Below are positions 16,812 to 53,515 of a stretch of 64,000 bases of DNA, piece by piece. A program made the position numbers and the translations under genes. The notes under the pieces are model-generated. The model saw only the letters and a program-made list of their open reading frames with translations, searched no databases and was not told where the DNA came from. The first letter of the stretch is position 1; each line of letters starts with the position of its first letter. The DNA comes from Candidatus Oxydemutatoraceae bacterium (GTDB lineage Bacteria; Pseudomonadota; Gammaproteobacteria; Poriferisulfidales; Oxydemutatoraceae), in assembly GCA_965220085.1 (NCBI GenBank), contig CBDCOZ010000003.1, positions 1,120,001 through 1,184,000 of the forward strand. Reading direction: 5' to 3'.

Positions 16812-18672
16812 CTATCGCAGCGGGCCTTCCAGAAAGAGGCGCAGCCGCAAGCGCAGGTTGGGTATGGCAACGCAAGCGGGCCAGGTTCCGAGGTATCCGT
16901 CGCCGCAGATGCATTCGGTTGCGCCGCCAGTGTTGTGGTCGGGCGGGTATCCGCCGGGGGCGTTTCCGTCAAGGTCGCAGTTTGCGACAAAGTCGTCGGT
17001 GTTTCCGCTGACAACAACATTGGGATGGTCATTGGCGTTTGGAAAGTTCGGAGGGTCGCCGAAAAGTTCGGCGCAAGCAGTCTTGTCGGAAGTTCCGTGA
17101 ATCAGACAATCCGTGTCGGTGGTGCGGATTGCTTGGTCGGCGCCATACAGGAGATATGGAATGCTGCAAAATGCGTCTGGGGAGTTCAAGAGAACAAGCC
17201 AGTTCGCGTTTTGGCAGTCCATAACCGTCTGCGTGGCGGCGGAAGGAAGACATATGGAAGAATCGCTCGCAGTGACAAGGGTTTGTCCCGCCGGACATCC
17301 GCAAGGAGTTGGTTTCGGTATCGTATGTTGTTCCTGTCGGGCATCCGTAAGAGTTGGTTTCGGAGGAGTAAGTCTGTATGCCGGGGCATTCGCAGGAGTC
17401 GGTTCCGGTGTCGTATGTTGTTCCCGTCGGGCATCCGCAAGAGTTGGTTTCGGAGGAGTAGGTCTGTATGCCGGGGCATTCGCATGAGTCGGTTTCGGTA
17501 TCATATGTTGTTCTGGCGGGACATCCGCAAGAGTTGGTTTCGGAGGAGTAGGTCTGTATGCCGGGGCATTCGCAGGAGTGGGTTTCGGGGTCGTATGTCG
17601 CGTCTGTCGGGACATCCGCATGAGTGGGTTTCGGGGTCGTATGTCGCGTCTGTCGGGCATTCGCAGTCAGCGGGGTTGGCACCGATGACATTGCATTCGC
17701 AGTCGGTCGGGGAGAATTTCATGTCGTGGGTGGCGGCCCATGTGACAAAGGCGGCGGTCGGCTCCGCCCAACCGAGGCATTGGCATTCGCGGTGATCGGA
17801 GTGGTACCGGGCGAGCGAATTTTCGTCGCCGCATCGGCGCCCGTTGCATCTCTGATATTGTCCGCTTGTCCCATCGTTTCTTGAAAAGCTATAGCGGGCG
17901 CAGATGCCGGTGTCATCGCTTTGTATTCCGCAGAAGCTCAGCGTTCCGTCGCCGATGCTGATGAAGCGATCCTCGGTGCTAATGCGGTGGCAGGTGTCGT
18001 AGGCGTAAAGGTGGTCGGGCGTCACGCAGGTGACCCGAGTCGGGCTGTGGGTGCCGGTCCAGACGCCGGTTCGTTGCGCGAAGACGCTGTATCCGTGCGC
18101 GCGTCCGGCGGGGCAGGCGGCGCGCCGCTATTGTTGTGGGTGCGGTCGTAGGAGTATCGGACGCCCTCGTGCTTGTAGCCGCGGGAGTAAATAGGGTCGG
18201 TGATGGCCTGGGGGCCCGAGGGGATGACATCGCCGACCGGGTTGTTGACGGAGTTGACGGCGATGATATGCCATCGGTAGCAATTTCCCCAAGATTGGCC
18301 GGATGAGGAGGGTGTTCGCACGGCCGTGTAAAACTTCTCCGGGTCGGTAATGAGTTCTCCGCTGCCGCTGGTGATTCGCCATTGTCCCGGGGTGAGTTCG
18401 TCGCACCGGGTGGGGTATGCGTTAGGGGGCGTGACAGGCACCTCGTCTTTGCTGAGAGACCGGTGTTGGGAGCGGTAGATGTAGTATCCGATGATGGGCG
18501 ACCCCCCGTCGGAGACGGGCGGGCGCCATCGGATGGTGAATGCCTCTTTGGCGAAGTCGGCCTCAATGACGCGGGTGATGCGGGGCTTTCCGGGCGCGGT
18601 TTGGGCTTGCGCGGCGGAGACGGCGGCGATTGCCGCAAAGAGGATGACGGAGAGTGCGAGGGCAGTCGTCAT
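16812..18672 (-). pseudogene. Frameshifted secreted protein: FN3-like domain, Cys-rich 15-aa repeats, Cys-rich domain, C-terminal LRLRLFLEGPLR
   Basis: Coherent protein segments lie in ORFs 18022-18672, 17501-18025, 17029-17691 and 16812-17660 in different frames; at least 3 frameshifts (real or sequencing indels). Confidence 0.65.
17290..17670 (-). repeat. ~45-bp coding tandem repeats (CECPxxxTYxxETxS)
   Basis: Alternating CECPGIQTYSSETNS / CGCPTGTTYDTETDS units. Confidence 0.8.
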
Positions 18673-19006
18673 CGCGCCCTTCGTCGGAAAAGTGCGGAAG
18701 ACAGAAGCTGAAATCCAGACCTGTGCGCAAAACCCTCATTGTGCGCCAATTATATCAAACCCCCGGCGCCGGCTTCGTTCGCGCACAGAGCATCACCCCG
18801 CTCCGGTGTGCTTGCGGGGATGGCGCGAGAGGAGCGTTATGGGGCACAGTGGTGGGAGCACAAACAGTAGTAGGAGCACAAACAACACTCAGTTGTTTGT
18901 GGCTTCTTGAGTTGTTTGTGGCTTCTTAGGGTAGTTACCGCCAGACTGCCCGCCAGTCAGCCCCCAAGAAGCGTGCGGCGCAAGTCCTGCGAGGGGATTG
19001 CTCGCG

Positions 19007-19666
19007 CTATCGCAACGGGCCTTCCAGAAAGAGACGCAGCCGCAAGCGCGGGCCCGGTGTGCAGCTCGGCCAGTCGCCGAAGTGCGAGCCCGGATTGCAT
19101 ACGCATTCGGTTGCGCCGTTCCGGTTGATGTCTGGATAGCCGCCGGGGACATTTCCGTCTCGGTCGCAATTTGCCACAAAGAACTTGCTGGTACCGACAA
19201 AGGGTCGGACGGCGGGGTGGTCCGCCGCTTTCGGAAAAACCGGCGGGTCGCCGTACATATCCGTACAGGCAATACCGCTCCCGCTTCCCAAAACAATGTT
19301 GCAGTCATTAGCGGTAATGCTAGCTGTTCTTGTCCCAAGGTTGGAGGGAATCAAACAAATCATGTTTCCCAGAAAGTACTGCGCCCCTGTCGCTTCGCGT
19401 CCGTCCCATCCCGCGTCTTCGCAGGCGTCCAGAATCGAGACGAAGGCGTTGTCAAAGCATCTGGTGTTCATTTCCTCAAGGAAATGGGGGGAAGTGACTC
19501 GGGTTTGCCCTTGTGGGCAGATAGTTTGGCAAATGCCGCGAACATTTTCCTGCCCTGCCGGACACATCGTTTGCGCTTGTGCGCTGTTTGCGACGAACGC
19601 GAAAGTTATTGCCGCGCAAATCCCGCAAATTTTAAGGGGGTCAGTATTAATAAGTTGTCGTTTCAT
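19007..19666 (-). CDS. Secreted Cys-rich protein with C-terminal LRLRLFLEGPLR
   Basis: AGGAGA RBS, signal peptide ending AQA, Cys-rich domain paralogous to the C-terminus of the 16812 gene. Confidence 0.8.
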   Translation of the reverse strand: MKRQLINTDPLKICGICAAITFAFVANSAQAQTMCPAGQENVRGICQTICPQGQTRVTSPHFLEEMNTRCFDNAFVSILDACEDAGWDGREATGAQYFLGNMICLIPSNLGTRTASITANDCNIVLGSGSGIACTDMYGDPPVFPKAADHPAVRPFVGTSKFFVANCDRDGNVPGGYPDINRNGATECVCNPGSHFGDWPSCTPGPRLRLRLFLEGPLR

Positions 19667-19807
19667 CGTATTTCTCCTAATGGTTTTTGATTCGTGAACG
19701 CGGTTGCGCAATGAGCGCTTCCGCCCCAAAGACCTCTACAAGTGTCTTCACATCCTGTCTCATCCTCGCGCGCCTCATAACACTCTCCTTCTCCGTAGTT
19801 ACTCGCG

Positions 19808-20923
19808 CTATCGCAACGGGCCTTCCAGAAAGAGGCGTAGCCGCAAGCGCAGACTTGAGTCGGACCTGCCTTCCACAGGAAGGCCGATGCTGCATCGCTC
19901 CTCGGATGCCGGCATGGAGTGCTGGTCCTTGAAGGAGGCGCATACGCGAAGGTATTTTCCGGCATGGGTGGCACGAGGCGTGAAGCCGGAGGTGAGGCCG
20001 CCCGTTGTTGTGGTACCCGCTATATCGCTGTAAGCGCCGACTACAGAGGTGCCGCTAGAGGGGGCATCGGCCTCTTGCCACTTCCAGCCCAGAGTGCTTG
20101 TATCAATGCCATTTCCATCAGCCACGCCATAGATGGAAGCCGTCAGCGGCGCATTGGCGGCATATGAAACGCCCGTACTGCCCGTCACCGTGGGCGCACC
20201 CTGGGCGGGAATCTGCGAGGTTTCCCCTCTGACCAGATTGATGGTAACGGTGCCATGCGAACTATAGGTGTTGATATCGTCGAAACTGTAGCCGCGATAA
20301 GCGAAACTAGCATAGTCAGGGGTGACAGAAATGGCATCAGGGGGAGGCACATAGTACACACTTCCCACATCATTGAGGGAAAAGTCGCCAGGGGTGAATC
20401 GAGTGTTGATGCGGGAACGGTTCTGTTTCTTCTGACCAATATGCCACGGTCAGGCAAAGTAACCAATTCCACGACGAAATCACTTCTGGTGGCGGTGCTA
20501 CCATTCGCATCCTTGAAGGCAAAGTCGTTTAACTGAAAGACGTAGGCACCGACCCCAATTCCGACATCAATGCTGGTATTCTGGGCGGCGGGGATGCCGC
20601 TTGTCTGGGCCGAGGCGCAGGTTGCGCCCAATGCCAGGGGCAGTAGCAACAGGCAACGCGTGGCGGTTCTGGACATAGCCCCGTCGGTCGGTACTACCGC
20701 TCGTGCGGGCGCAAAAAGCGCCACAAACCGTCGCCGCAACGAAAGCCCGAGCCCGGGTGCCCCCGGGGCGTGCGACCGCTTTGCGGATGGCGGGTTGCGA
20801 TATGCGGGTGATAAAAAGCGGGTGAAGAGGCGATACGGCGAAACGCCGATAAACCCTTTACTTACAAGGCTAGGGGGGGGGGGGGGGGGGGGGGGTAACA
20901 GTATTAAAAATATGTCGAGTCAT
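19808..20923 (-). pseudogene. Secreted beta-rich (adhesin-like) protein with C-terminal LRLRLFLEGPLR, interrupted by a poly-C tract and one frameshift
   Basis: GAGGAG RBS and ATG at 20923; C23 tract puts it out of frame; ORFs 20185-20739 and 19808-20368 join by a frameshift near 20410-20440. Confidence 0.6.
20873..20895. repeat. G23 homopolymer tract
   Basis: 23 consecutive G. Confidence 0.9.
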
Positions 20924-20982
20924 AGTATTACTCCTCACAGTCTGAATTTAGCGAATGTAGCTGTACAACAAGTGCTGTGTGC

Positions 20983-21206
20983 TCTGCCACAAAGTACAAG
21001 TCATTTGCAAGATCTGAGTTGTTCATTGTTTCCCTCATTTAATGTACTCTATCACAAAGTGCAAGTCATTTGCAAGAACTGAATTGTTCATTGTTTCTCT
21101 CATTTAATGTACTCTATCACAAAGTACAAGTCATTTGCAAGAACTGAATTGTTCATTGTTTCCCTCATTTAGCGTACTCTACCACAGAGTACAAGTCATT
21201 TGCAAG
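20983..21206. repeat. 65-bp tandem repeat, ~3.4 copies
   Basis: CACARAGTRCAAGTCATTTGCAAG recurs at 20988, 21053, 21118, 21183. Confidence 0.9.
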
Positions 21207-21412
21207 TGCCTTTTGTATCCTGTCTTACCCGCCCAAAGATGTCGGTGATGGCCAAGACGATGATGCCGCCACACGGCGGTTGAGAGAGGCGGCTGAAAAC
21301 GAGCCGAACCCCGATATATGAGAAGGCTTGGGGCGCTTATAGAGAATATAAGAAAGGCGGGTAGAATAGCGCACTTATGCAGAGAGGAATCCAAGCGTGA
21401 AAATACAGTGCT

Positions 21413-23167
21413 ATGAGTCGATATTGCAAAAGTGATTTAAATCCGGAACCGATTCTTGCGGCAGCGAAACGGTGGCGCGACGATTGTTTGTTAGGGGACG
21501 GTTCTGTATTTGGTGATGAGAAAGTTTGGACTCATGAAAACCTTGCACGATTACACCAAGCCTTTACAGAGAACCTGATAGAAGGTCGCCGAAGCTTTTT
21601 TGATAAGTTTGAAGAACAACTGAGAGACACTTCCGAGAGCGTCAAGCATCTGGCGGCCGAAATGTACTGGGCGATGCAACTGTCTCCGGTCAAGCTTATC
21701 AAACCCTCTACCAAGCGCGAAAATATCATGCGGATATTGCAGTGGGGGAACTCGGAACTCGATGAATCACATCCGATGCTGACAGATGAGGTATTACACG
21801 GGCTTGGCAATCCCGGAAGAGGGTTTGCCAATTATATGTGGAAGGAACTCATATTCTTCATGGACTTCATGCAGAAATTTAAGGGCTTGGGCAGAGATGA
21901 GCAGAGCGCTTTGTGCGCAGATGGCTGGGAGTTTGCAGAGTGGCTGGAGGGTTTTCAAGAGCATAGGACTCGCCAGTTTCGGCACATGACTCTGTTCTTA
22001 CTGTTCCCTGACGACTTTGAACGTACTTTTTCGTCTCGCGCGAAACGTAAGATGATTCAGAAATATGATGGGATGACTCTCAAGGAAAGTAAGAGCATTC
22101 CGCGCCCGGAAGTTGACCGCAGGGTGAAGGCGGTGCGCGAGAGGCTGGAGGGGCGTTTCAAGAGGGAGTTTGATTTTTATGAACCGGATATCAGAGAAGA
22201 GTGGGACCCGTCGGAGCCTCAGCCAAAGCCATCGGCAACATTAACGGTGGGGGACGGGGAAGAACTTGCCCCATCGGACGGGGAATTATTCCTTGACGAG
22301 GAGGAGATAGAAAAAATCACAAATGCTTTGCGTACCCGCAAGAATATTATTCTCGAAGGCCCGCCCGGAACCGGCAAGACATTCGCCGCCTCCCGACTTG
22401 CCTACCGGCTCTTCGGCAAGAAGGACAGCAGTTGTATTCGGACAGTCCAGTTTCATCCCAACTACTCGTATGAGGATTTTATGGTCGGTTATCGCCCGTC
22501 AGAGTCGGGGTTTAAGCTCAAGCCCGGCGTCTTCTTGGAGTTTTGTAAGAAAGCGGCAGGCGACCCGCAACAGAAGTATGTCTTGATTATAGATGAGTTT
22601 AATCGTGCCAATGTCACATCGGTATTCGGCGAACTGATGATGCTGATCGAGCACGACAAACGCGGGAAAGATTATGCAATACCGCTGGCTTATTCCGACG
22701 GCGCTCCTGATTCTGACGATGCCCTTGGTCACAGCTTTTATGTGCCCGAAAATTTGTATGTCATCGGCACGATGAATACCGCCGACCGCTCGCTTGCTAT
22801 GGTGGATTACGCACTGCGGCGCCGCTTCCAATTCTTTGAGATCACACCGTGCTTCAACGACAAGTTTCGTGAATTCTTTGTCCGGCAAGGCGGGGATGAG
22901 GAGATGGCCAAAGCCATCTGTGGCAAGTTGAAAGAATTAAACAAAGTGATTGCCGATGATGCATCTCTCGGATTCGGGTTTGAAATCGGTCACAGCTATT
23001 TTTGTCCTGCAGGCGACAACAGCAGCGAGGACGATTACGATTGGGAAGGCTGGTATCAATCGGTTATTGATCAGAGTATCGCCCCGTTGTTGCAAGAGTA
23101 TTGGTTTGACTCGCGCGAAACAGCCAAGGCTGCGATAGCCAAGCTTGATCTGGAGACAGATACCTGA
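21413..23167 (+). CDS. mcrB: McrB family GTPase (type IV restriction)
   Basis: GPPGTGKT, QFHPNYSYEDF, IIDEFNRAN, GTMNTADRS, ALRRRF. Confidence 0.92.
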   Translation: MSRYCKSDLNPEPILAAAKRWRDDCLLGDGSVFGDEKVWTHENLARLHQAFTENLIEGRRSFFDKFEEQLRDTSESVKHLAAEMYWAMQLSPVKLIKPSTKRENIMRILQWGNSELDESHPMLTDEVLHGLGNPGRGFANYMWKELIFFMDFMQKFKGLGRDEQSALCADGWEFAEWLEGFQEHRTRQFRHMTLFLLFPDDFERTFSSRAKRKMIQKYDGMTLKESKSIPRPEVDRRVKAVRERLEGRFKREFDFYEPDIREEWDPSEPQPKPSATLTVGDGEELAPSDGELFLDEEEIEKITNALRTRKNIILEGPPGTGKTFAASRLAYRLFGKKDSSCIRTVQFHPNYSYEDFMVGYRPSESGFKLKPGVFLEFCKKAAGDPQQKYVLIIDEFNRANVTSVFGELMMLIEHDKRGKDYAIPLAYSDGAPDSDDALGHSFYVPENLYVIGTMNTADRSLAMVDYALRRRFQFFEITPCFNDKFREFFVRQGGDEEMAKAICGKLKELNKVIADDASLGFGFEIGHSYFCPAGDNSSEDDYDWEGWYQSVIDQSIAPLLQEYWFDSRETAKAAIAKLDLETDT

Positions 23168-24249
23168 AGATTCCAATCCAAAACATCTACTTCCTGCTCT
23201 GCTATGCGTGGAACTGCTTGCCGCAGGGCGATGTCATCCGACGCTCAAACCTCCCCAATGACAGAATCATAAACCTGCTGGCGCATGTCTTGCATGAGGC
23301 GATTGCCAACTTGCTCAAGCACGGGTTGGAGCGCCGATTTAATGTTGTCCGTGAGACGACCGACCGCATTCGCGGCAAGATTGATTTGGATGAGTCCATT
23401 AAGCAAGGCTTGATACAAGGGCAGAACCTCATCTGCATCGTGCCAACCCTGAGTCATAACACGGCCGCTAACCGCGTCCTCAAAAGCACCCTGGCAGCAT
23501 TGATTGCCCAACCGGATTTGGATCCGAAGTTGAAGCAACAACTCATTGAACTGTCTCGCCGCTTCAAGGAAATTCCCGCATCCGATTCGGTCGCGACCGA
23601 CTTGAGAAGAGTGGTCGTACACCGCAACAACAGGCTTTATCGGTTGGCCATATCGCTATGTCGTCTGTGGTGGGAGCGCTGGCTGGCGCGGGATGAGGAC
23701 GGTGTGCATCAGTTTCCGGATTTTGAGCGCGATGAGCGCAAGATGCGCGAGTTGTTTGAAAAGTTTGTGCGGAATTTTTATTGCATACATCTGTCGGATG
23801 ATGCGGGTGCGCCCATAATAAGATGGCAGGCGACAGGCTCGGAAGAGAACCTCAAACTGATGCCGGAGATGAGAACCGATGTCGTCATTACCGGCGCGGA
23901 TTATCGTCTGGTGATAGACACTAAATTTACCGGATCAACCCAATGGCATCGCGAAACAGAAAAAGCAAAATCGGGTTACCTCTATCAGATATTTGCCTAC
24001 GTGATGAACATGCGCAACGATGACCGATTCGCCGCTCTGCCGTTAGCGGGCGTATTGCTGCACCCGGTTATCGAGGGCGAAAGAGACATAGAAGTGGAAA
24101 TTCTCGGTAGCCCGATAGCCGTCAAGCATCTCAACCTCGCGATGGATTGGCAAGCGATTGAAGAGCGGCTGCTGGCAATCCATCGGCGGGAGATGGAACG
24201 AGCGCGAGCAACTGCAACAACGATTCCGCCCGCGCAAAAATATGCATAA
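23164..24249 (+). CDS. mcrC: McrC family nuclease subunit (probable CTG start)
   Basis: KIPIQNIYFLLCYAW N-terminus, RGKID, TD...IDTK nuclease motif, YQIFAY. Confidence 0.88.
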   Translation: MKIPIQNIYFLLCYAWNCLPQGDVIRRSNLPNDRIINLLAHVLHEAIANLLKHGLERRFNVVRETTDRIRGKIDLDESIKQGLIQGQNLICIVPTLSHNTAANRVLKSTLAALIAQPDLDPKLKQQLIELSRRFKEIPASDSVATDLRRVVVHRNNRLYRLAISLCRLWWERWLARDEDGVHQFPDFERDERKMRELFEKFVRNFYCIHLSDDAGAPIIRWQATGSEENLKLMPEMRTDVVITGADYRLVIDTKFTGSTQWHRETEKAKSGYLYQIFAYVMNMRNDDRFAALPLAGVLLHPVIEGERDIEVEILGSPIAVKHLNLAMDWQAIEERLLAIHRREMERARATATTIPPAQKYA

Positions 24250-24260
24250 AATAAGCAGCA

Positions 24261-27200
24261 ATGCAGTATATTAAAAACGGACCAGATATACCCGATGAGC
24301 TAATTGAAGCGCAACAAAAGAGTGAGGTAATTTTTATCTGCGGCGCAGGAGTTTCAATAAACTCTGGCTTACCAGATTTCAAAGGGTTGGTAAGCAAAAT
24401 TTATGAATCCCTAGATTTGGATATAGAACAAAACCAGGCAGAAAAATTAAGCTTTGATAAAGGGCAATATGACAAAGTTTTATTTCTCCTAGAGAGAAGA
24501 TTAACAAATGGTCGGAAAAGAATAGAAGCAGAAGTTAACAGCATACTTGGCAAAAGCCCAACCTGTCGTAATATTCATAATGCACTTTTAACATTATCTC
24601 GTGATGGAAATAATGAACCTTACTTAATCACTACAAATTTTGATGAGCATTTTGAAAAGTGTAACCCTAAGATCCCAAGTCTCTCACCACAAGCCTTGAT
24701 TCAATTTCCTCCTCCCGCAGGCATAATCCATTTACATGGAAAGATAAGAGAAGAGGGTATGGTTTTAACTTTTGCTGACACCTCTGATGCATATTTACAA
24801 AGTGGGTGGGCAAAACGGTTTCTAAATAAGGTTGCAAGATGGAAGAGTATTGTTTTTGTTGGGTTTTCTGGTGAGGATCCCTATTTTCAACTTTTAATGG
24901 CAGCCATTTCACAAGATAGAAAGTGGGCTAAAGGCATGCCATCAGCTTACGCTTTCAGTTCTAATAAAGAAAAAATCTTATGGGATATGTTTGATGTAGA
25001 AGTTATAGAGTATACATCGAACGATGCCCATTCCTTATTAAACGAAACACTCATTGAATGGGTTCATCATGCAAATGATAAAAGCGCATGGGAAGAGAAT
25101 GCTTTAAGATACTTGCTACAAAAGAAACCTGCGGAGCATAACGAACTAGAAAAAAATCAATTTGAGTTTTTAATTACAGAACACGGAAAAATTCCTGATG
25201 GAACCAATCCTTTCCCAGAATGGTGGTCAACAATAAAAACCTTACAGTTGCCACCAGACTCTATTATTCCATGGGTTATGCAAAACCTAGAAAATCCCGA
25301 TATGGTTAAAGCTTTTGTTAAGCATCCAATTGAAGGAACGCAATTCATCTCTAAGTTTGAAGATAGATTTATAGAACAAGAAAGAAAGATAAAAGAACCA
25401 TATCGACAAGCTTGGAAACTACTTATCCATCAGGCAAAGCAATATAGGTTAGAAGACATGGAGTATTTTGATAAGTGGTGTAAGTTGAAGCAACGTATGC
25501 AAAATGGGGAATATGGAAGTGAGGTAATAGATGGGATAGTAAAAGTCATCACCCCTACCCTCAATATAACGCCCCCACTTTCCCTGTATGATTCTCTGAG
25601 TGAGCAAGAGGAAGAACAAAACAATAATATGTCTCTTTATGATCTTATGCGCTGTGAATTTAGGACTTCTTCATACATTAAAGCAAGAGAAATTCTGCAA
25701 GCATGGACGCCTACAGATTCACAAGAAACTTTGAGGCTATGTCGCAGACTGACAGAGCGAATGGTTGAAATGCTAGAATTTGCTCAAGAGCAGAGGATAG
25801 ATTGGACAGTGTACATTCCATCAATTGAACAGCATTCTCAAAACAGATGCTACAAGGATGGCTTTTATCAGATTGTCCGCTTGACGACTGGCATTTGGCA
25901 AACATTAGATAAAGAATATGCATTGAAAATTTCCTCTCGTTGGCGAGAGCGTAGAAATATAAATTTAATGCAAAGAATGTTTCTTTATGCCCTCACAGAA
26001 GAAAAGGAGTGGTTTCCGGCAAAGGAAGCTGCAGATGAATTATTAAATATGGATGAGAAAATATTCTGGGGTCTGCGTAGTAGGGGTAGCATTTGTAGCA
26101 TTTGGGTTCTGTATAGTGGGGGTAGCGTAAAAAAAGAAATAGCAACGCTACTAGAGAAGCACTGGGATGAATTCCCGCAAGAACAAAAAGGTAAATTAGA
26201 AGAAAAAATTCTTAAGGGCCCTCCGCGTGAGAAGTTTGAAAGTCTCCCACAAGAAAAAGCAGATGAATATCATGAAGTTGAAATTCTCGAAAAGTTGCGT
26301 GCTATTAAGAATCTATCTGAAGAAACTCAGAAGAGAAAACTTGAACTAGAAAAGAAGCATCCAAATCATCCAGAATGGCAAACTAAATTTAACGAATTCG
26401 ACCATGGAATCTTTCGCGGAGACCAAGGAGATCCTGAAGAACTAGATGCCTTGCCCGCAGAGAAACGCATAGAAAAAGCGAGAGAATTACAAAGAGTCGA
26501 TTTTGATCAACATGATATCTGGCTTAAATATTGCCGCCATGACCCTAGAGGTGCTTTAGAAGCTCTAAAAGCAGAAGCGCAAAAACAAGAATGGCCGGAA
26601 GCAAAGTGGCGCCATTTTTTCTGGACAAGTGACACATGGAAAAACTTCAATTTTGAGGAAGAATCAAAAAAGCAACTTATTGCAGACGTTGCAGAAGCGA
26701 TAAAGGGGATACCAGATAAAAACCTAGTGCTCTTTGTTGATAGCCCTGCTTCTTGGTTTCGAAATTTGTTGACACATTTTGATGAAAAGCAACGGCTTTC
26801 TCTCTGGCATAAAATGATGGGTGCATTAGAACTTCGTGACGAAAGTAACGAGCCACCTGATGCTTATGGAGTTGCTATAAATCGTGCTGAAGGGAAATTG
26901 ACCGAAGTCGTTTTTTCATGGTGTGGCAGTCGCAACAAAAATCAGGGATTTGAAGATAAAATCAGACCGCTGATGGATAAGCTTGTAAGCCTAGGGGGTT
27001 ACAGTGGTGCCTTGGTAAGGGCAACCATGATGCCGTTTTTGGACTATCTTTACCATACCGAACCTGACTGGACGGAGAAACATATCTTACCTTGGTTAAA
27101 AGAAAGCCACCCAATGCGCTGGGCTTTATGGGATGGGTATAAATATAATAAGTATCTTCCCAGAGAAGAACTATTTAACAAAATGAAGCCGGATATATTA

Positions 27201-27806
27201 ACGGCAATTGATGCAGATAATACTAACGAAGACGGATATGGGGAGAGCAATATAAAACACCGCCTCATTTATACGCTCATACAAATATTATTCTTTAGAC
27301 AAGAGCCAGACTATGCTCTGGAGGCAAAGGAAATACGTCAAAGGTTAAGAAAGGTGGATGATGAAACACGATGCAACGTTCTAAGAAATTTACGACATGG
27401 TCTAGGGAGCCAAACTGACAAGGATAAAAAAGAAAGCATAATAAAATGTTTTTTTGAACAGGTTTGGCCATTGGATGCTGAATTTATAGAGGGCAGTCTA
27501 AATGAAATGTTCTTTTTTCTGACACGCATGGAAGATTCTTTCCCGGCAGCTTTAGAAGCCACAAAGGGTTTTCTCCGTCCAATGAAAGACAGCTCCCAGT
27601 TTTATAACCTTGAACATGCCAATCTACACCAAAGATTTCCAGAGGATGTCCTCACGCTTCTTGATTCAGTCATAGGCAAGGAAACTCGTATTAGAGACTA
27701 TGAGGGAGATAAAATAAAAAACATACTTGATTCCATTGTGGAAAGCAGACCTGACCTGAAACAGGATAACCGCTATCAAAGATTACGCAGATATATACGT
27801 CACTAG
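24261..27806 (+). CDS. SIR2-domain anti-phage protein, Dsr1-like
   Basis: MQYIKNGPDIP...CGAGVS, TTNFD, HLHG, FVGFSGEDP; 1181 aa, AT-rich, follows mcrBC. Confidence 0.75.
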   Translation: MQYIKNGPDIPDELIEAQQKSEVIFICGAGVSINSGLPDFKGLVSKIYESLDLDIEQNQAEKLSFDKGQYDKVLFLLERRLTNGRKRIEAEVNSILGKSPTCRNIHNALLTLSRDGNNEPYLITTNFDEHFEKCNPKIPSLSPQALIQFPPPAGIIHLHGKIREEGMVLTFADTSDAYLQSGWAKRFLNKVARWKSIVFVGFSGEDPYFQLLMAAISQDRKWAKGMPSAYAFSSNKEKILWDMFDVEVIEYTSNDAHSLLNETLIEWVHHANDKSAWEENALRYLLQKKPAEHNELEKNQFEFLITEHGKIPDGTNPFPEWWSTIKTLQLPPDSIIPWVMQNLENPDMVKAFVKHPIEGTQFISKFEDRFIEQERKIKEPYRQAWKLLIHQAKQYRLEDMEYFDKWCKLKQRMQNGEYGSEVIDGIVKVITPTLNITPPLSLYDSLSEQEEEQNNNMSLYDLMRCEFRTSSYIKAREILQAWTPTDSQETLRLCRRLTERMVEMLEFAQEQRIDWTVYIPSIEQHSQNRCYKDGFYQIVRLTTGIWQTLDKEYALKISSRWRERRNINLMQRMFLYALTEEKEWFPAKEAADELLNMDEKIFWGLRSRGSICSIWVLYSGGSVKKEIATLLEKHWDEFPQEQKGKLEEKILKGPPREKFESLPQEKADEYHEVEILEKLRAIKNLSEETQKRKLELEKKHPNHPEWQTKFNEFDHGIFRGDQGDPEELDALPAEKRIEKARELQRVDFDQHDIWLKYCRHDPRGALEALKAEAQKQEWPEAKWRHFFWTSDTWKNFNFEEESKKQLIADVAEAIKGIPDKNLVLFVDSPASWFRNLLTHFDEKQRLSLWHKMMGALELRDESNEPPDAYGVAINRAEGKLTEVVFSWCGSRNKNQGFEDKIRPLMDKLVSLGGYSGALVRATMMPFLDYLYHTEPDWTEKHILPWLKESHPMRWALWDGYKYNKYLPREELFNKMKPDILTAIDADNTNEDGYGESNIKHRLIYTLIQILFFRQEPDYALEAKEIRQRLRKVDDETRCNVLRNLRHGLGSQTDKDKKESIIKCFFEQVWPLDAEFIEGSLNEMFFFLTRMEDSFPAALEATKGFLRPMKDSSQFYNLEHANLHQRFPEDVLTLLDSVIGKETRIRDYEGDKIKNILDSIVESRPDLKQDNRYQRLRRYIRH

Positions 27807-40779: not shown

Positions 40780-40932
40780 ATGATGACAAGAAAAATTCAT
40801 GCCACGCCGATTAAAAAATTATCTTTGGGGCCGGATTGCGCGATGATGCTTCCGCTTACATCCGCTTTTGCGGCGCCTAAGATGACACGCAAGACCGAAG
40901 CTGTCGGAAGAAACCAAACGAAGGAGGAATGA
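40780..40932 (+). pseudogene. Duplicated 5' fragment of the PQQ sugar dehydrogenase gene
   Basis: MMTRKIHATPIKKLSLG...TSAFA matches the N-terminus at 43208. Confidence 0.75.
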
Positions 40933-42551
40933 AAATGATTTATCACACAAACCGATGGTTGTTATTCGGGTGCTTGGTAATTTCCTGTGCGCCGGCTTTT
41001 GCCGAGGTTTCGGGGCAAATGGAATCTCAGGCTATGGAGTACCAAGCCGAAGAGATCAAAATTGCGGGCGCCGCAGCTCACGGCAACCCCTTGCGGTTGC
41101 CACGATTCAGCGAACAGGAAGAGCAAGAAATCCTCAAGTTAATCGAAGACAAAACGAGATTCTTTATCAGCATCCCCAGAGAGGCGAATGTCGGCGCCAA
41201 TCACTGGGAGAATGTCGGGCGAGAGGATGGCTTTGACATTTGGCAGTTACATATCTATTCGCCTGATGCCTTCAGCTTGCAAGTTGATTTTTCCGAATTT
41301 GCCTTGCAAGAATCCATGATGGTTAAGGTGTATGGAACAAGCGACAGCCAGATGCCTTATATCGGGGAATATACGAGCGCACGGGGGTACGAGGGCAATT
41401 TCACCTCCATATCCGTTCCCGGCGATACGGTGGTCGTAGAAGCATGGATGCCGGCTGGCAGCGGCGTAGTGGCGGATTTCCCCTTTAAGGTCAGGCGTAT
41501 TTATCATCAATTCAGGGACAGCGCAAACAATGTCAGGGGAGTGGAAAGTTTTTCGCTTAGCAATGAGCAAAGTCATTCTACATGCCCCCTTATAGACGGC
41601 AGATGTAATTATCAAGGTCAGCGATTCCAACCGTGGCGAGCCACTGTGCAAATGCGGGCTGGCGGTTATTCTTGTAGCGGAGCTTTAATTAATAGTCGGG
41701 GCTCTTTCCCTGCGGGCAGCGCTCTTGTTTTAACCGCTTACCATTGTATTGACAATCTGGCGGGCCCGGAAGCGGCAAGAGGCACACGCATAAATGCCAC
41801 GTTTGATATCGGCTCCTCACCTTGTGCGCCTGGTGATACATCTATTGCTGTTGCAAGTGGCGCCAGGTTTGTTGCCGCAAATGCGCAGGGTGATTACGCG
41901 CTATTGCTGGTTGAGAACATTGTAGCTACAGACCGAATAGTGTTTATGGGTTGGTCCGCCACAAGACAGCCTGTGAGATCAGTTCTTGACATATTTCACC
42001 ATGGGGAATCAATATCTACACAACAGTATGCACGGAGTGAAGTAACGGGTTTCTTAAGATCGGAGGGAAGGACGACCTCTGCCGGAACGCTTTTTTCCGA
42101 TTGCGGAAATTCTCCCGGCTGTTCACACTATGATCTCCACTCGGTAGAGGGGGGCATAAGAGAAGGATCATCCGGCGGGGGATACTTTATAAATGACAAT
42201 GGAACATTTCGCCTCAACGCTGTCGCTACGCATGGTAATAGGGCTACTTGCACACAAAGCGCTTCTTTGTTTCAGAAAATTTACGAAGATGGCAGGGTTC
42301 GGTGCGCCCTTGGCGGGGGAGGGTACGGTTATATTAGTCAAGGTCAATGCGATGATAGCAGACGCCCATCATATGCTGTTGACGAAGTTGTTGCCAGCGG
42401 CGGCGGCGGCGGAGGCGGTGCTATCTCGCTGACGGAGTTACTCGCCCTGTTTGGTCTTGTGGCGATTGTGGCGATGCGCCGTCGTGAAAGTCTTTTGCGG
42501 AAGCAACCGACTATTTGCGCAAAGAAAGTAACCCAATGCAATAGGAGATGA
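40929..42551 (+). CDS. Secreted trypsin-like (lysyl endopeptidase-like) serine protease with GlyGly-CTERM anchor
   Basis: CSGALIN, LTAYHC, DYALL, GSSGG; C-terminal poly-G, TM helix, RRR. Confidence 0.85.
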   Translation: MKMIYHTNRWLLFGCLVISCAPAFAEVSGQMESQAMEYQAEEIKIAGAAAHGNPLRLPRFSEQEEQEILKLIEDKTRFFISIPREANVGANHWENVGREDGFDIWQLHIYSPDAFSLQVDFSEFALQESMMVKVYGTSDSQMPYIGEYTSARGYEGNFTSISVPGDTVVVEAWMPAGSGVVADFPFKVRRIYHQFRDSANNVRGVESFSLSNEQSHSTCPLIDGRCNYQGQRFQPWRATVQMRAGGYSCSGALINSRGSFPAGSALVLTAYHCIDNLAGPEAARGTRINATFDIGSSPCAPGDTSIAVASGARFVAANAQGDYALLLVENIVATDRIVFMGWSATRQPVRSVLDIFHHGESISTQQYARSEVTGFLRSEGRTTSAGTLFSDCGNSPGCSHYDLHSVEGGIREGSSGGGYFINDNGTFRLNAVATHGNRATCTQSASLFQKIYEDGRVRCALGGGGYGYISQGQCDDSRRPSYAVDEVVASGGGGGGGAISLTELLALFGLVAIVAMRRRESLLRKQPTICAKKVTQCNRR

Positions 42552-45874: not shown

Positions 45875-46011
45875 GAAAAACATAGCCTAAGTACATTTGA
45901 GCTTGGGAGGAGGCGCGCCGGACAATGGCAATATCTGAATATTTAACTGCTATACCGAGCCAGGCTAGAAACCCTGCTCTTACTAATTTATCTTATCGGA
46001 GGTAAAAAATT

Positions 46012-47916
46012 ATGAAAGATCGTCAACAAGCAACTTTTGATTTCCGTGTGAATGCCGCCAAGCTTGCTCGGGATCGTAACCATCCTGAGCACAGAGCAAA
46101 CGGCGAGGAACAACGATACGCAGGCGCAAACTATGCGATGAGCTTCACCAAAGGACTGAAGCATAACCGTAAAACCGGACTTATCTGTGACCCGACGCAT
46201 TTTGAGGCTTTCCGCAAAGCCATAGATGATGCTTTTATAGATCCCTTCACGCTCAATGTGCCGGTAGCTCCGGAGAAAAGAAGAGGTTGGGAAGCGCCGA
46301 CGGCCGGGGTAGCACACGATCTTGAAGGTCCCGATGCCCAAGCGGTGACTATGCCGCCGGCTCCGGAACTTGGTTCAAAAGAGCTCGCTTATGAGATGGC
46401 CGAAGTTTATGAGATGGCCTTGCTCCGAGACAATCCGTTGACTCAATTTCAAACACCAGCCGGAAACCCGCCACCGCCACCGCCAGTTGCGGCCACAATC
46501 GGTCGATTGAATGGTATTGATTATGCGATTGATGGCAGCGAAGGTCGCCCCCGAAAGAACACGAAAGGCGCATTGGATGAGCAGACCCTTTTCCGAGGCT
46601 CTTCGCCGGGTGTTGAGGCCGGGCCCTACTTGTCGCAATTTCTGCTAATTGGCGGCGGATGTTTGGAAGAAGATGTCGAAAGCGGGATGATTGATTATGG
46701 CGCTAATAGCATTGATCAGAGGGTTCCCGTAGCAAGCAAAGAGGATTATATGACCGAGAAAGATGATTACATTGATGTCCAAAATGGCGCAAATCCTTGT
46801 TTCGATAACGGTTGCGAATGCGATGATGCGGATGACAAATCATGCGGGTGCGGCAATGCCGAAGACGGGTGCAACGATGATTGCCGTTGCAGTAATCCAT
46901 GTGTGTGTGATCCTTGCTTGCGCGGGGATTGTCTTGGCGTAACGCTTGACCCGGACGCAAACCCGAAACGTCGTTTTATTTCAACTCCGCGTGATTTGGC
47001 AACCTATGTGCACGTTGATGCTCTGTATCAGGCCTATCTCAATGCGTGCATTATCTTGCTGAACAGCAAAGTGCCGTTTGACCCGGGGTTTGGCGCATTG
47101 TCCGGACAAGCGCCGCTATACCATTTGGGCTCTAAGAACCGGCGGCAGGCAGAAGGCTTTGCGCTCTACGGCGGCCCGCATGTATTGACTTTGGTGACCG
47201 AGGTGGCGACTCGTGCGCTTAAAGCAGTGCGCTATCAGAAGTTTAATAACCATTTGCGCTTGCGCCCGGAAGCATTGGCGGCGCGCATTCACTACAGAGA
47301 GAATATTCGTAAGAAAGTTTGCCCTGATTTTGGTAAGAAACTGACTACAGACTTGTACGCGCGTATTGGAGGTACGGTAGCAGCAATTTCCGGTCAGTCT
47401 GGGACTGAATTATTACCCATGGCTTTCAAAGAAGGTTCGCCGATGCATCCATCCTATGGCGCCGGACATGCTACCGTAGCCGGAGCCTGTGTCACCGTGC
47501 TAAAAGCATTTTTTGATACGAGCACAGTCTTCGTCAAAAGGAAAGTTAAATCGAAATCAGAGCCAGAGGAAGCAAGCACAGTAGTCGCTTTTCGCCGGTG
47601 CAAACGCGGCGACGAGCCCATAGCGTACACCTCAGACTTCAACATTGGTAAAGGAGTTGGAAATGAATTGGTGGAATCAAATCCTGATAAATTCCTCACG
47701 TTGGAAGGGGAGTTAAACAAGTTGGCCGCCAATATTTCTATTGCGCGCAACATGGCGGGTGTGCATTATTTTTCTGACTACTATGACAGCGTGCGTATGG
47801 GCGAGGAAATTGCCATTGGCATACTAGAAGAGCAAGCGCTTGGTTACCCGACCGACCGTTTTGTGATGTCGTTGACTACATTTGACGGCCGCTCCATACG
47901 CATCGGACGACGGTAA
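46012..47916 (+). CDS. Vanadium-dependent haloperoxidase 1
   Basis: QKFNNHLRLRPE, GSPMHPSYGAGHA, ARNMAGVHYFSD; RDLATYVHVDALYQAY. Confidence 0.9.
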   Translation: MKDRQQATFDFRVNAAKLARDRNHPEHRANGEEQRYAGANYAMSFTKGLKHNRKTGLICDPTHFEAFRKAIDDAFIDPFTLNVPVAPEKRRGWEAPTAGVAHDLEGPDAQAVTMPPAPELGSKELAYEMAEVYEMALLRDNPLTQFQTPAGNPPPPPPVAATIGRLNGIDYAIDGSEGRPRKNTKGALDEQTLFRGSSPGVEAGPYLSQFLLIGGGCLEEDVESGMIDYGANSIDQRVPVASKEDYMTEKDDYIDVQNGANPCFDNGCECDDADDKSCGCGNAEDGCNDDCRCSNPCVCDPCLRGDCLGVTLDPDANPKRRFISTPRDLATYVHVDALYQAYLNACIILLNSKVPFDPGFGALSGQAPLYHLGSKNRRQAEGFALYGGPHVLTLVTEVATRALKAVRYQKFNNHLRLRPEALAARIHYRENIRKKVCPDFGKKLTTDLYARIGGTVAAISGQSGTELLPMAFKEGSPMHPSYGAGHATVAGACVTVLKAFFDTSTVFVKRKVKSKSEPEEASTVVAFRRCKRGDEPIAYTSDFNIGKGVGNELVESNPDKFLTLEGELNKLAANISIARNMAGVHYFSDYYDSVRMGEEIAIGILEEQALGYPTDRFVMSLTTFDGRSIRIGRR

Positions 47917-47978
47917 GCAGCACTGAAAAAACCAAATGAAAAAATTATTTCTTATAACAAACAAATCTGGAGACTAAC

Positions 47979-49079
47979 ATGAAAAAATTATTTTTTATTG
48001 GCCTATCTTTTGTCGCCCTGTTGCTGATGACAGCATCAGTGTCGGCTGAACACCTATGCAGAGGAGGTTGCGCATGCCTCGCTAGTAACCCCCTGTGTGA
48101 ACCTTCTTGCGATAACGATGTAAATTGTGTCTTCCGTGGCCATGAAGGCGGCGGCAACGGCAGCGGAGGCGGCGGCGGCAACGGTAGCGGAGGCGGCGAA
48201 GATTTCGTCGAGTGCCGAGCGCCTGCTGTGAACCACTCCGGTACTACATTCGTCGACTTTTACCAAAATTGCGAAGACTGCCGCAACAATCATGGTGGCA
48301 TATGCCAACCATTTGGTGACCGCAGTTGCCCGACCGGCTTCTCTCCGATTGAAGTGAGTCCAGGCACCTCCCGCCATTGCGTAACCAGCGCCGGCGGTGT
48401 CGAGGGCGACTACTGCCTGCAAGATGTCAGTAATAGAATTGAAGTTGTATCCGGTTACTCTTGCCATCAATGCCGCACCCTGTTTGACGGCAGCTGCCGC
48501 ACAAGCCAAAGTTGCCCCGCCGGCTACAGTAGAGATGAGAGCGTCACCGGCTTCTTTTGCACCCGTGGCGGCGGTAGCGGCGGAGGCGGTGGCGGCGGTA
48601 ACGATACCCACCCGCATCGCAATAGCGCAAGCCAACTGCAAATAGGAAGGAGCGCCTCAGGATCTGTCTCGATGCCGGGGGATGTCAATTACACCCGTGT
48701 CACACTGTCTAGGCGGATGTTTGTTACTATTCAAACCACCGGCGGAACTGACACAGTGGGACGACTGGAAAACAGTTCGGGCGGAGTGTTGATTACTAAC
48801 GATGACGGTGGCTCAACCCCTAATTTCAGCATTAGCGGAGTTCTTGAGCCAGGTACTTACTACATCAGAGTTTCAGGCTATGAGAATACGACAGGCAATT
48901 ACATGCTGACCACAACTGGCCGCGAACCCCGTGATGGTGATCCGGTCATCAGTAGCAGCGGCGGCGGCGGAGGCGGCGGCGGAGGCGCTCTGTCACTGGC
49001 CGCGTTGCTCGCGCTGTTGAGTCTTGTCGCGGTTGCGGCGATGCATCGTCGCGCAAGTCTTTTGCGCAGACAACCTTGA
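47979..49079 (+). CDS. Secreted Cys-rich protein with PPC-like domain and GlyGly-CTERM
   Basis: Signal peptide, Cys-rich modules with Gly linkers, NDDGG..NF.I...LEPGTYYI, poly-G/TM/RR tail. Confidence 0.8.
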   Translation: MKKLFFIGLSFVALLLMTASVSAEHLCRGGCACLASNPLCEPSCDNDVNCVFRGHEGGGNGSGGGGGNGSGGGEDFVECRAPAVNHSGTTFVDFYQNCEDCRNNHGGICQPFGDRSCPTGFSPIEVSPGTSRHCVTSAGGVEGDYCLQDVSNRIEVVSGYSCHQCRTLFDGSCRTSQSCPAGYSRDESVTGFFCTRGGGSGGGGGGGNDTHPHRNSASQLQIGRSASGSVSMPGDVNYTRVTLSRRMFVTIQTTGGTDTVGRLENSSGGVLITNDDGGSTPNFSISGVLEPGTYYIRVSGYENTTGNYMLTTTGREPRDGDPVISSSGGGGGGGGGALSLAALLALLSLVAVAAMHRRASLLRRQP

Positions 49080-49188
49080 TACCGCTCTGTAGAGGATATG
49101 ACAAATATAATTAAGAGAGACGAAAGCAAACCATACTCTTAACCCTCTGAGTAAGAAACAGTCAGATACTCTGATTGGTTGTGCCCTG

Positions 49189-49220
49189 AGCCACGGTACC
49201 GCCGGTGCCGTGGCTTTTTT
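49189..49220 (+). terminator. Intrinsic terminator
   Basis: AGCCACGGTACC-GCC-GGTGCCGTGGCT plus T-run. Confidence 0.8.
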
Positions 49221-49351
49221 ATGTTGCGAGATCCGCTATCCGCAAAGCGCAGAACAGCAATAAGGAAACCGGACTATTGTCTCTGGCGTTGGAACTTGCC
49301 CGCAACAGGTGCTAACGGGTGTCAAGATTATGTATCAGGCAACCGGGAAAT

Positions 49352-49396
49352 ATACCCCATTTGGGGGATGTACAACATGTGGCGGAAGTGTAGTAT
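49352..49396 (+). promoter_or_regulatory. 18-bp box copy 4 with -10 hexamer
   Basis: ATACCCCATTTGGGGGAT-21 bp-TAGTAT. Confidence 0.8.
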
Positions 49397-49436
49397 CTAC
49401 TGAAACATAAATATTAATTAAGGGAAGGCTTTTCAA

Positions 49437-51383: not shown

Positions 51384-51424
51384 AGCGTTCATTTCGTGTG
51401 TGTTGACAATCAGTCGAAGGAGAA

Positions 51425-53515
51425 ATGAAAAAATTACTTTTGGTCATCCTGTTGCTGGGAGCGGCATCAGTGTGGGCAAACCCCATGACTGTGCCCCAGG
51501 ATGTGTTAACCATAGCCCAAGCCAATGACCCCGAACCGGATCCTTTGCGTTTGCGTTTGCGCGTATTCTTGGAAGGCCCCTTGCGAGGCGGCTCGTCTTC
51601 GGCCGGGGATCCCCGAACGGGGTCGCGAAGTGATGCGCGCGCACTAGCGCTGGGAAGAAACGTATCAGGAACTATCCAACCGGGCATTACCCATTACTAC
51701 CGTTTTACGCTGTCTTCGCGCGCACTGGTTGGTATTGGAACCACCGGCATGACTGACACCATCCTGCGATTGGAAAACAATGCGGGCACAGTGTTAGCTG
51801 AGAGTGGTAATATTAATATCGGAGGCGCAAACATCAGAATTGTTCGCACTCTTGAACCAGGCACCTATTACATAGCCGTTGCGGGCGTTGCTCCTTCAAC
51901 AACGGGAAGTTACACTCTGGTTCCAACAGCATTATCAACAACCGGACTTCCCCCGAAATTGGGAACAAGAATCTCAGGGACTATCCAACCAGGCATTGTC
52001 GATGCCTACGAATTTACGCTGGATAGGCGCTCAGAGGTTATTCTTGAAACCACTAGCACAATTGACACAGCCGGAATATTGGCAGACGGTATGGGCACAG
52101 TGTTAGCTACGGCCGATGACATTGATCGTAGTGGCGGAAACCTAAATTTCAGAATTAATGAGATTCTTAACGCAGGCACTTATTACATATCCGTTAGGGG
52201 CTTTGCTCCTGACACAACAGGAAGTTACACTCTGCTTAGAACCACAATACCCGTACTAACATTCGGTCTCTCCGAAGAAGGGGATATCTCACCGGAAGGG
52301 GATGTCGATGAATGGTCATTTGCGCTATCTGAGCGCTCAGAGGTTACTATTGAAACCGTTGCCAGTACTCCTTACACATTCGGACGCTTGCTACGCAGTG
52401 ATGGCTCAGTGTTGGCTGATAGTGATGATTTCTCCTCTAATGCTTTTTCTGGCGGAGCCCGTGTTAACGGAAACAAGAATTTCAGCATTACTCAGACTCT
52501 TGAAGCAGGCTCTTATTACATGCGGGTTTCGGCTTGCTGGCAGCGATTCCGCGACGGAGATTGTGACCGGTCTATAGCACAAGGAAGTTACGCTTTGTTT
52601 GCGACCGCCATACCCGCACTAAGCTCGATAGACAGGGCAGAAGAGGCTATCTCACCGGCAGGGGATGTCGATAGATACCAATTTATTCTGTCTTCGCGCT
52701 CAGAGGTTGTTATTCAAACCACCGGCATGACTGACACATTCGGACGATTGGAAAACAGCATGGGCACAGAGTTGGCTACGAGTGATGATATTAGCAAGGA
52801 TGACGAAAATTTCAGAATTACTCGCACTCTTGAAGCAGGCACTTATTACATAGAAGTTAGCGGTCATGATTCTGACGAAACAGGAAGTTACATTGTGTTT
52901 ATAGACACAATACCCGCACTAACATTGGGAGAAAGCGCATCCGGGGATATCTCACCGACAGGGGATCGCGATCGCTACCAATTTGCCCTGTCTTCGCGCG
53001 CGGAGGTTACTTTTGAAACCACCGGCATGACTGACATAATTGGAACATTGTTTGACAGTCGCTTCAACGAGTTGGCTGAGGATGCTGATATTAGCGGCGA
53101 AAACCTAAATTTCAGAATTACTCAGACTCTTGCAGCAGGCACTTATTACATATGGGTTGAGGGTGAGCGCGGAGCAACAGGAACTTACACTCTGATTACA
53201 AAAGGAGAACTCGTGCTAATATTGGGAGAAAGCGTATCAGGGGTTATCTCCCCGGCAGGGGATGTCGATAGGTACCGATTTACGCTGTCTTCGCGCACAC
53301 AGGTTACTTTTGAAACCACCGGCTCAACTGACACATTCGGAAGGTTGTATGACAGTGAGGACACACAGTTGACTAGTAATGATGACAGTGGCCCAGGATA
53401 TAATTTCAGAATTGTTCGCACTCTTGCAGCGGGCACTTATTACATAACCGTTGAGGAACATGGTAATAACAGCACAGGAAGTTATACTTTGATTACGACC
53501 ACAGCAACACCGTGA
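51425..53515 (+). CDS. Secreted protein with N-terminal LRLRLRVFLEGPLR and six PPC-like beta-sandwich repeats
   Basis: Signal peptide; six ~100-aa repeats G.ISP.GD.D.Y.F...TD..G.L...NF.I...L.AGTYYI. Confidence 0.85.
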   Translation: MKKLLLVILLLGAASVWANPMTVPQDVLTIAQANDPEPDPLRLRLRVFLEGPLRGGSSSAGDPRTGSRSDARALALGRNVSGTIQPGITHYYRFTLSSRALVGIGTTGMTDTILRLENNAGTVLAESGNINIGGANIRIVRTLEPGTYYIAVAGVAPSTTGSYTLVPTALSTTGLPPKLGTRISGTIQPGIVDAYEFTLDRRSEVILETTSTIDTAGILADGMGTVLATADDIDRSGGNLNFRINEILNAGTYYISVRGFAPDTTGSYTLLRTTIPVLTFGLSEEGDISPEGDVDEWSFALSERSEVTIETVASTPYTFGRLLRSDGSVLADSDDFSSNAFSGGARVNGNKNFSITQTLEAGSYYMRVSACWQRFRDGDCDRSIAQGSYALFATAIPALSSIDRAEEAISPAGDVDRYQFILSSRSEVVIQTTGMTDTFGRLENSMGTELATSDDISKDDENFRITRTLEAGTYYIEVSGHDSDETGSYIVFIDTIPALTLGESASGDISPTGDRDRYQFALSSRAEVTFETTGMTDIIGTLFDSRFNELAEDADISGENLNFRITQTLAAGTYYIWVEGERGATGTYTLITKGELVLILGESVSGVISPAGDVDRYRFTLSSRTQVTFETTGSTDTFGRLYDSEDTQLTSNDDSGPGYNFRIVRTLAAGTYYITVEEHGNNSTGSYTLITTTATP

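Follow-up and report, generated by a model that had tools for sequence, protein, structure and literature searches.

The window analyzed here is a 64,000-nucleotide stretch (positions 1120001-1184000 of contig C3) of the 2.49-Mb, 99% complete genome of a Candidatus Oxydemutatoraceae bacterium (G000). It contains four cargo genes that carry a peptide tag of 13-14 residues with alternating Leu and Arg and no transmembrane helix, which we interpret as the first β-strand of a split X-module-dockerin-like domain. As pointed out in the earlier note on this DNA, three tandem genes on the reverse strand end in the tag, with stops at 16812, 19007 and 19808, each directly after ..RLRLRLFLEGPLR. The first of these (16812..18672) has a signal-peptide-like start, a β-rich and then Cys-repeat body, and the tag LRLRLRLFLEGPLR at 16815..16856 (stop codon 16812-16814). 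The second (19007..19666) combines a signal-peptide-like start (..SAQAQ) with a Cys-rich body, for which no Pfam or NCBIfam match was found, and the tag RLRLRLFLEGPLR at 19010..19048 (stop codon 19007-19009). The third (19808..20915, with the start near a C run and the upper end approximate) has a β-rich body with a frameshift near 20.4 kb and the tag LRLRLRLFLEGPLR at 19811..19852 (stop codon 19808-19810); its tail was used as the partner in the complex model described below. Only the second is an intact frame, the first and third being frameshifted. The FN3 body assigned to the first gene is a label given by eye, for which Pfam returned no match, and the FN3-like start is out of frame with the tag because the gene, starting at 18672, is broken by approximately three frameshifts. 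Contigs of sequencing run X1, which is probably the source of the assembly rather than independent of it, show no indel relative to the assembly over 16821-17461, 17628-18500 and 20127-20530, and the frame breaks within those stretches are therefore present in X1 as well. The fourth cargo gene (51425..53515, forward strand) encodes a 696-amino acid protein in which a signal-peptide-like start is immediately followed by the N-terminal tag LRLRLRVFLEGPLR (51545..51586), a GGSSS linker and tandem PPC domains (PF04151); as previously stated, this copy is encoded unlike the other three.

A six-frame search of G000 with up to three mismatches to RLRLFLEGPLR yielded 231 matches, versus none in the genome reversed, or complemented without reversal, which excludes chance. 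The great majority of the matches (222 of 231) are located directly 5' of a stop codon, whereas among the nine others, three, including the copy at 51545, are true N-terminal tags, consisting of a signal-peptide-like start, a short linker, the tag and GGS, and six resemble remnants or chance matches. Tagged genes account for 186 of the 1942 genes called by our own crude gene caller and for 18.4% of the genome. A signal-peptide-like start, scored by a crude rule, was found in 135 of the 188 long tagged frames (at least 150 amino acids), in agreement with the proposed association of the tag with exported proteins, and many of the other frames start just past a poly-Pro (C-run) stretch. The 70 residues preceding the tag sort into 13 unrelated classes and the tag is present in six genera, so that the motif is not restricted to a few recent duplicates. 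Of 15 sampled cargo frames, 9 produced Pfam matches, including cadherin, Calx-beta, subtilase and He_PIG. The tag lacks the tripartite organization of motif, helix and basic tail that characterizes GlyGly-CTERM, PEP-CTERM and LPXTG signals (as well as MYXO-CTERM), as the earlier note maintained. Its independence from described domains proved to be partial: none of 38 tag tails matched NCBIfam, but the tag is a piece of a domain with a known dockerin C-terminal part.

The 222 C-terminal copies comprise 184 distinct DNA versions that encode only 14 peptides and are followed by all three stop codons. Across the tag, the pairwise proportion of synonymous differences (pS) is 0.505 and that of nonsynonymous differences (pN) is 0.033, compared with 0.70 and 0.68, respectively, in the seven codons upstream. 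Of the 188 long frames, 4 contain non-consensus residues, compared with 8 of the 34 shorter ones. Short tandem re-copies of the last 20-50 codons of a gene, including the tag, were also observed downstream of tagged genes (among others, at C3:908969-909485 and 513752-514223 in G000, and on L282 and L285 of the relative G009); G000 has 26 short frames of this kind, which are possibly spare tails or duplication scars.

The candidate reader of the tag was traced through a domain that starts with KVFLEGPY and the later part of which supplied short motifs for the first genome search. A single G000 frame, C3:469175-470137, approximately 650 kb before the window, carried two of these motifs; this gene, hereafter the catcher, encodes a signal peptide followed by the domain minus its first strand. 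A 222-position profile of the intact domain was built on 46 complete C-terminal domains of 190-275 amino acids, which were kept from 73 in-frame metagenome matches to KVFLEGPY, the other 27 being other proteins, incomplete, or outside this size range. Among the 1942 proteins of G000, the only strong match to the profile was the catcher (E 5e-26, positions 19-210), with the match starting at the predicted signal cleavage site, right after AHANA. The tags align to profile positions 3/4-15 and the catcher lacks positions 1-18, so that together the two tile the domain. The catcher is a predicted stand-alone secreted protein and is not fused in cis to cargo in the manner of X-module-dockerins; its homologs in related genomes likewise begin at profile positions ~17-32, behind a signal peptide.

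The intact domain is widespread, with 9,742 representatives at E≤0.001; among the best 150 of these, 142 are intact according to our own screen and 133 are located near the C-terminus. Beyond its dockerin end, the domain has no Pfam or NCBIfam model. One intact domain modeled with AlphaFold2 (predicted local distance difference test [pLDDT], 92.5; predicted template modeling score [pTM], 0.90) displays an X-module β-sandwich followed by a dockerin and matches the Clostridium thermocellum CipA X-module-dockerin over its full length (VIA Z scores of 10.7, with a root-mean-square deviation [rmsd] of 3.5 over 148 aligned residues, and 10.1; Foldseek E 5e-5), with the next unrelated VIA match at Z 4.7. 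By sequence comparison, only the dockerin end (148-217) gives a match; one of seven intact domains exceeded the Pfam cut-off for PF00404, the duplicated calcium-binding dockerin repeat, and three more matched weakly, and the profile matches dockerins in the PDB (E 1e-4).

Complex modeling supported direct binding. The tag-catcher pair scored 0.81, compared with 0.02 for the best of three controls; of 157 complexes with solved structures, 116 attain the mark applied to such scores, as do 2 of 215 mismatched pairs. At least 91% of contacts are shared between runs, and the pLDDT of the partner is at least 59. Within the 33-residue tail, only the tag part (residues 18-33) makes contact, and the tag is modeled as an inner strand between residues 142-147 and 183-191 of the catcher, also touching the first residues of the latter. 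Sequence complementarity and the structural model of the pair agree on a putative donated strand.

The genomic neighborhood of the catcher provides a candidate anchor. In G000, gspC-N (C3:452121-466032), with GspD, GspE and GspF over their cut-offs, is followed after 3 kb by the catcher, then by a gene for a 1346-amino acid scaffold and by a TIGR03902 rhombosortase (96 bits versus a cut-off of 84). By eye, the scaffold ends in a Gly-run, a hydrophobic helix and basic residues. A model of its N-terminal 202 residues (pLDDT 68.9) adopts a cohesin β-sandwich fold: the top 18 VIA matches are all cohesins (Z 8.5-11.2; best rmsd 3.0 with 130 aligned residues), and Foldseek gave E 9.5e-6. At the sequence level, no cohesin Pfam match was found in 18 members and no match in the PDB; as a single query, the N-terminus retrieved no clear relatives, which were found by an alignment-based search. 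A cohesin-like gene follows the catcher in G000 and in each of 20 regions retrieved for having one. Of the 12 regions with complete scaffolds, seven have, by eye, GlyGly-CTERM-like tails (hence, with G000, eight scaffolds end in a Gly-run, hydrophobic helix and basic residues), three have a helix and a basic tail, and two end in the tag. Cohesin scaffolds that terminate in a tag or a re-fused intact domain (L319:2260-10482 in G015, L320:1409-11008 in G002 and L308:2514-4463 in G009) are possible adaptor scaffolds for chains or branches. In the relative G005, the scaffold frame (C1:928721) reaches 19,552 amino acids.

To trace the distribution of both components, we compared 18 relatives from the same family and 22 genomes from other families of the order. 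Family members are not phylogenetically independent, and the informative cases are G001, G008 and G009. Tags were read in translation in 16 of the 18 relatives, and profiling for a co-occurring receptor, as the earlier note had recommended, gave matches to the catcher profile in 16 of 18 relatives and in none of the 22 others, where the FLEGP-type pattern is at the control level. In 15 of the 18 relatives, free tags coexist with stand-alone, signal-peptide-bearing strandless catchers (one to five per genome). The peptide is conserved between genera with other codons, in the form of genus dialects: KVFLEGPL[QR] in g3; R[VIL]FLEGAL[EQN] or FLEGPLQ in g4; R[VM][FL]LGGA[VT]R in g5; RVFL[EQ]GA with 4-14 extra residues in g2; and RVFLQGALQ, in one copy, in g6. 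In a class-wide sample, 2 of 401 genomes contained the tag, both of family f1, with dialects such as VLLGGA lying outside the pattern used. Among named records, the FLEGPLQ/FLEGALE form gave 56 matches, of which 55 come from records bearing the names Ca. Oxydemutatoraceae, Ca. Porisulfidus or Chromatiales, and in one named relative an N-terminal tag followed by GGG is found on a different secreted protein; when named genomes were screened for exact LR[LIV]FLEGPLR before a stop, no match was obtained outside the own genome. A single Bacteroidales match in a 21-amino acid frame was taken as chance, and of three KVFLEGPY matches in viral contigs, both translated ones were spurious.

The three informative relatives differ from one another. 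G008 (97% complete, one contig) has neither tag nor catcher. In G001, all 26 profile matches lie in frames of 687-17,496 amino acids, and in the three that were read the strand is present in cis; free tags were not detected, the 17 strand-pattern matches in this genome being consistent with cis strands, and the regions around its rhombosortase and type II secretion system yielded no catcher or cohesin match. In a quick tree, these intact copies lie outside the catcher clade. By contrast, a 650-amino acid protein of G009, composed of a cohesin, VLLGGAVR, a short linker and a catcher, is nested within the catcher clade (Shimodaira-Hasegawa-like approximate likelihood ratio test [SH-aLRT] support of 99), and therefore represents a re-fusion. 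The V[LF]LGGA dialect predicted from this protein was subsequently found 5' of stops in G004 (8), G009 (17) and G013 (2), counts in which a few matches are not tags and for which the respective controls gave 1, 0 and 0.

Rhombosortase TIGR03902 is over the cut-off in 17 of 18 relatives and in none of the 22 others. GspD is over the cut-off in 17 of 18 relatives, with the fragmented genome giving a partial match, and in 2 of the 22. Conversely, the autotransporter barrel PF03797 exceeds the cut-off in none of the 18 relatives, has no match in G000, and is present in 12 of the 22 others and in 11 of 11 genomes of the sister family f2; thus, with 0 of 19 family genomes against 11 of 11, the family is without the barrel route. 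One f2 genome, G022, has 32 autotransporter matches, most in frames of approximately 1,100-1,200 amino acids, and the sister family appears, judging from such gene content, to expand its surface repertoire via the barrel route instead.

We consider it quite probable, given the complementarity of the sequences, the modeled complex and the analogy to characterized systems, that the cargo tag completes the catcher, the dockerin of which binds a lipid-anchored cohesin, so that the tag would act as a docking signal derived from a naturally split domain. The first option raised in the earlier note, docking by strand complementation onto a scaffold at the surface, is strongly supported, with the partner now named and with the tag and the catcher accounting for positions 3-15 and 19-210 of the 222-position profile, respectively. 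In this scenario, cargo proteins, judging from their signal peptides, would reach the periplasm by Sec, where a single secreted adaptor, the catcher, with its X-module-dockerin-like domain devoid of the first β-strand, would accept that strand from the tag and thereby complete its fold. The catcher dockerin would then bind the predicted cohesin-fold N-terminus of the neighboring scaffold, as in cellulosomal type II pairs, and the GlyGly-CTERM-like tail of the scaffold would, by analogy with Vibrio VesB, be cut by rhombosortase, linked to lipid and exported by the type II system. The outcome would be a plug-and-socket display of approximately 190 adhesin- or enzyme-like proteins, many switched by C runs. 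Recognition by fold completion would explain why the tag is usable at either end, without a membrane helix, cleavage or a free carboxyl end.

Several observations weigh against this interpretation. The complex score supports rather than proves binding, because split halves pass easily, in part through likeness to solved X-dockerin structures. The dockerin of the G000 catcher is divergent, with no Pfam match, but keeps two dockerin-type Asp loops. The GlyGly-CTERM tail of the G000 scaffold was recognized by eye; no such NCBIfam model scored, and choice-of-anchor U remained below the cut-off. Eight tagged frames span 3,000-15,193 amino acids, lengths that sit uneasily with the export of folded proteins by a type II system. 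Across genomes, G014 (85% complete, 230 contigs) has tags with no catcher found, G008 has a weak cohesin-like match (E 4e-7) without a catcher, and G001 has intact domains yet no cohesin matched by profile. Finally, at the level of the family, the co-occurrence amounts in essence to a single event rather than to many.

Of the competing explanations, the one that fares best, although we regard it as unlikely, retains the same pairing but casts the catcher as a periplasmic export adaptor or chaperone to the type II system, with the cargo released or briefly held. The proximity of the G000 catcher to the gsp operon, the near-ubiquity of GspD in the family, and the presence of a single catcher gene, and of one cohesin in each scaffold, against approximately 190 cargo genes would all fit such a role, but it leaves unexplained the retention of the two Asp loops in the catcher and the cohesin-fold gene next to it in all 20 regions, and several catchers are encoded far from gspD. 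We give still less credence to the view that the tag descends from strand 1 but now has a different reader, either a translocon of the outer membrane or a processing enzyme, in place of the lost autotransporter barrels, with the catcher a bystander. It is hard to see why a bystander would start exactly at the end of the tag and have no first strand of its own, or why free tags and strandless catchers would be jointly absent in G001 and G008, and a tag that works at either end also speaks against such a reader; the tags without a found catcher in G014 are in its favor, as is the absence of PF03797 from the family, but autotransporter loss is equally compatible with split-domain docking. Hardly credible is an explanation at the DNA level, in which gene conversion would have spread a repeat or recombination site with no role for the peptide; the codon test largely refutes it. 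The bases just past the stop are partly shared and 26 copies in G000 lie in frames shorter than 60 amino acids (13 of them within 900 nucleotides downstream of another tag), but the multitude of DNA versions converges on few peptides with all three stops, pS greatly exceeds pN, non-consensus residues are concentrated in short frames, and the peptide is kept between genera with other codons.

In G000, 82 of the 86 C/G runs of at least 10 nucleotides (10-28 nucleotides), read as C, fall within the 5'-end zones of tagged frames, which make up 4.1% of strand-bases, and no run in the opposite orientation was found at these 5' ends; no A/T runs of 10-28 nucleotides were detected in the genome. Runs of nine or more C are present at the 5' end of 83 of 188 tagged versus 3 of 1321 untagged frames. 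Cargo gene 3 has a 23-nucleotide C run at its 5' end (20873..20895, reverse strand), a probable slipped-strand on/off switch, and from their placement the C runs collectively look like a system of contingency loci dedicated to the surface repertoire. One socket for approximately 190 plugs implies competition, which switching by C runs would fit. Upstream of cargo gene 3, imperfect ~62-nucleotide direct repeats were also observed (window 20960-21210).

Beyond the family, four signal-peptide proteins (P0009, P0010, P0049 and P0095) start at the same point (..FAQ-TMNTDL), and KVFLEGA is found in P0051 and P0052, intact proteins closely related to them. The quick tree, which included three of the four, places these amid other intact domains and apart from the catchers of the family, which suggests a second, separate split in this lineage. 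A broader proposal, which we advance tentatively and hold to be possible but short of probable, is that splitting of X-dockerins after strand 1 is a recurrent (at least two origins) and reversible (G009) way from a 220-residue anchor to a 13-residue label, allowing self-assembling chains and trees, since some cohesin scaffolds (G002 and G015) themselves carry a terminal tag. If true, a single socket would let these symbionts assemble surface coats that are branched and phase-variable, and further orphan tags at protein termini may also represent detached strands, each served by a stand-alone catcher.

Elsewhere in the window, a trypsin-like and a PPC-domain secreted protein (40929-42551 and 47979-49079) have GlyGly-CTERM-like tails, and because similar-looking bodies carry N-terminal tags (C1:36487 and window 51425), the tag and GlyGly-CTERM-like anchors look interchangeable. 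Two paralogous proteins of 615-634 amino acids (46012-47916 and 53973-55820) show weak PAP2 matches and a SYGAGH motif; they resemble vanadium-dependent haloperoxidases. A McrB/McrC-like pair followed by a 1181-amino acid SIR2-like protein (21413-27806) is, by eye, presumably a defense island. A flavocytochrome c sulfide dehydrogenase-like pair with a NapC/NirT-like cytochrome (12253-15026), likewise labeled by eye, is consistent with a sulfur oxidizer. The remaining features are a helical repeat protein of 431 amino acids (15289-16584) and a TraT-family lipoprotein above the Pfam cut-off (58120-59058).

The short sorting signals known to date depend on recognition by an enzyme, such as a sortase, or by a translocon, whereas the tag would be read by fold completion. 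A natural tag-catcher pair of this kind would address approximately one-tenth of the called genes to one surface anchor and would explain a large, switchable adhesin repertoire in a family without autotransporters, members of which are presumably sponge symbionts, Porisulfidus being connected with a sponge genome paper (PMC12988363). It would further represent a two-component binding pair and possibly a protein-engineering tool with genus dialects. The search for a domain that begins with a tag and for a gene that lacks that strand offers a route to the readers of other orphan tags.

As a sorting principle, this arrangement would be new, whereas its modules, namely, X-dockerin and cohesin, GlyGly-CTERM with rhombosortase and type II secretion, and strand donation, are already known; in the literature searched, supplements and most subscription papers aside, no account was found of a dockerin module that is split in nature and serves as a tag throughout a genome. 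In cellulosomes, a type II X-dockerin that is part of the cargo chain binds a cohesin. Like CipA of C. thermocellum (PDB 2b59, 3kcp, 5g5d), the system described here involves an X-dockerin-like intact domain and a cohesin-like partner gene with a predicted cell-envelope anchor, but the cargo bears the first strand only, with the remainder of the domain encoded by a gene of its own. In addition, the host is a Gram-negative bacterium with adhesin-like cargo (cadherin, Calx-beta, He_PIG and subtilase), and the identity by structure is 14-16%. A cellulosome-like dockerin/cohesin complex has been inferred from sequence in Ca. Stygibacter of the Cloacimonadota, which is similarly Gram-negative, with signal-peptide proteins carrying terminal dockerins and a cohesin scaffold; however, each cargo there has a whole dockerin, and the portion of that report consulted describes no split domain, tag or rhombosortase anchor (PMC8542988). 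Vibrio cholerae VesB exemplifies the route of GlyGly-CTERM, rhombosortase and type II secretion (PMC6219818). The catcher locus resembles it in having a rhombosortase, a type II secretion system and scaffolds with, by eye, a Gly-run, helix and basic tail, but the tag has no helix or Gly motif, and GlyGly-CTERM would anchor the scaffold only, with cargo attached via the adaptor. In chaperone-usher and type V pili, a terminal β-strand completes the β-sandwich of a neighbor, thereby polymerizing pilin subunits. The principle of a strand of one chain completing the incomplete β-sandwich of another would be shared, but here hundreds of proteins unrelated to one another would use a single acceptor, and neither an usher nor a pilin fold is implied. 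A parallel in design is SpyTag/SpyCatcher, an engineered split CnaB domain in which a 13-residue strand forms a covalent isopeptide bond. Both pairs consist of a 13-residue strand and the remainder of a small β-sandwich, with the strand placed at either terminus, but the pair described here is natural, shows no sign of a covalent link, and has the first rather than the last strand detached.

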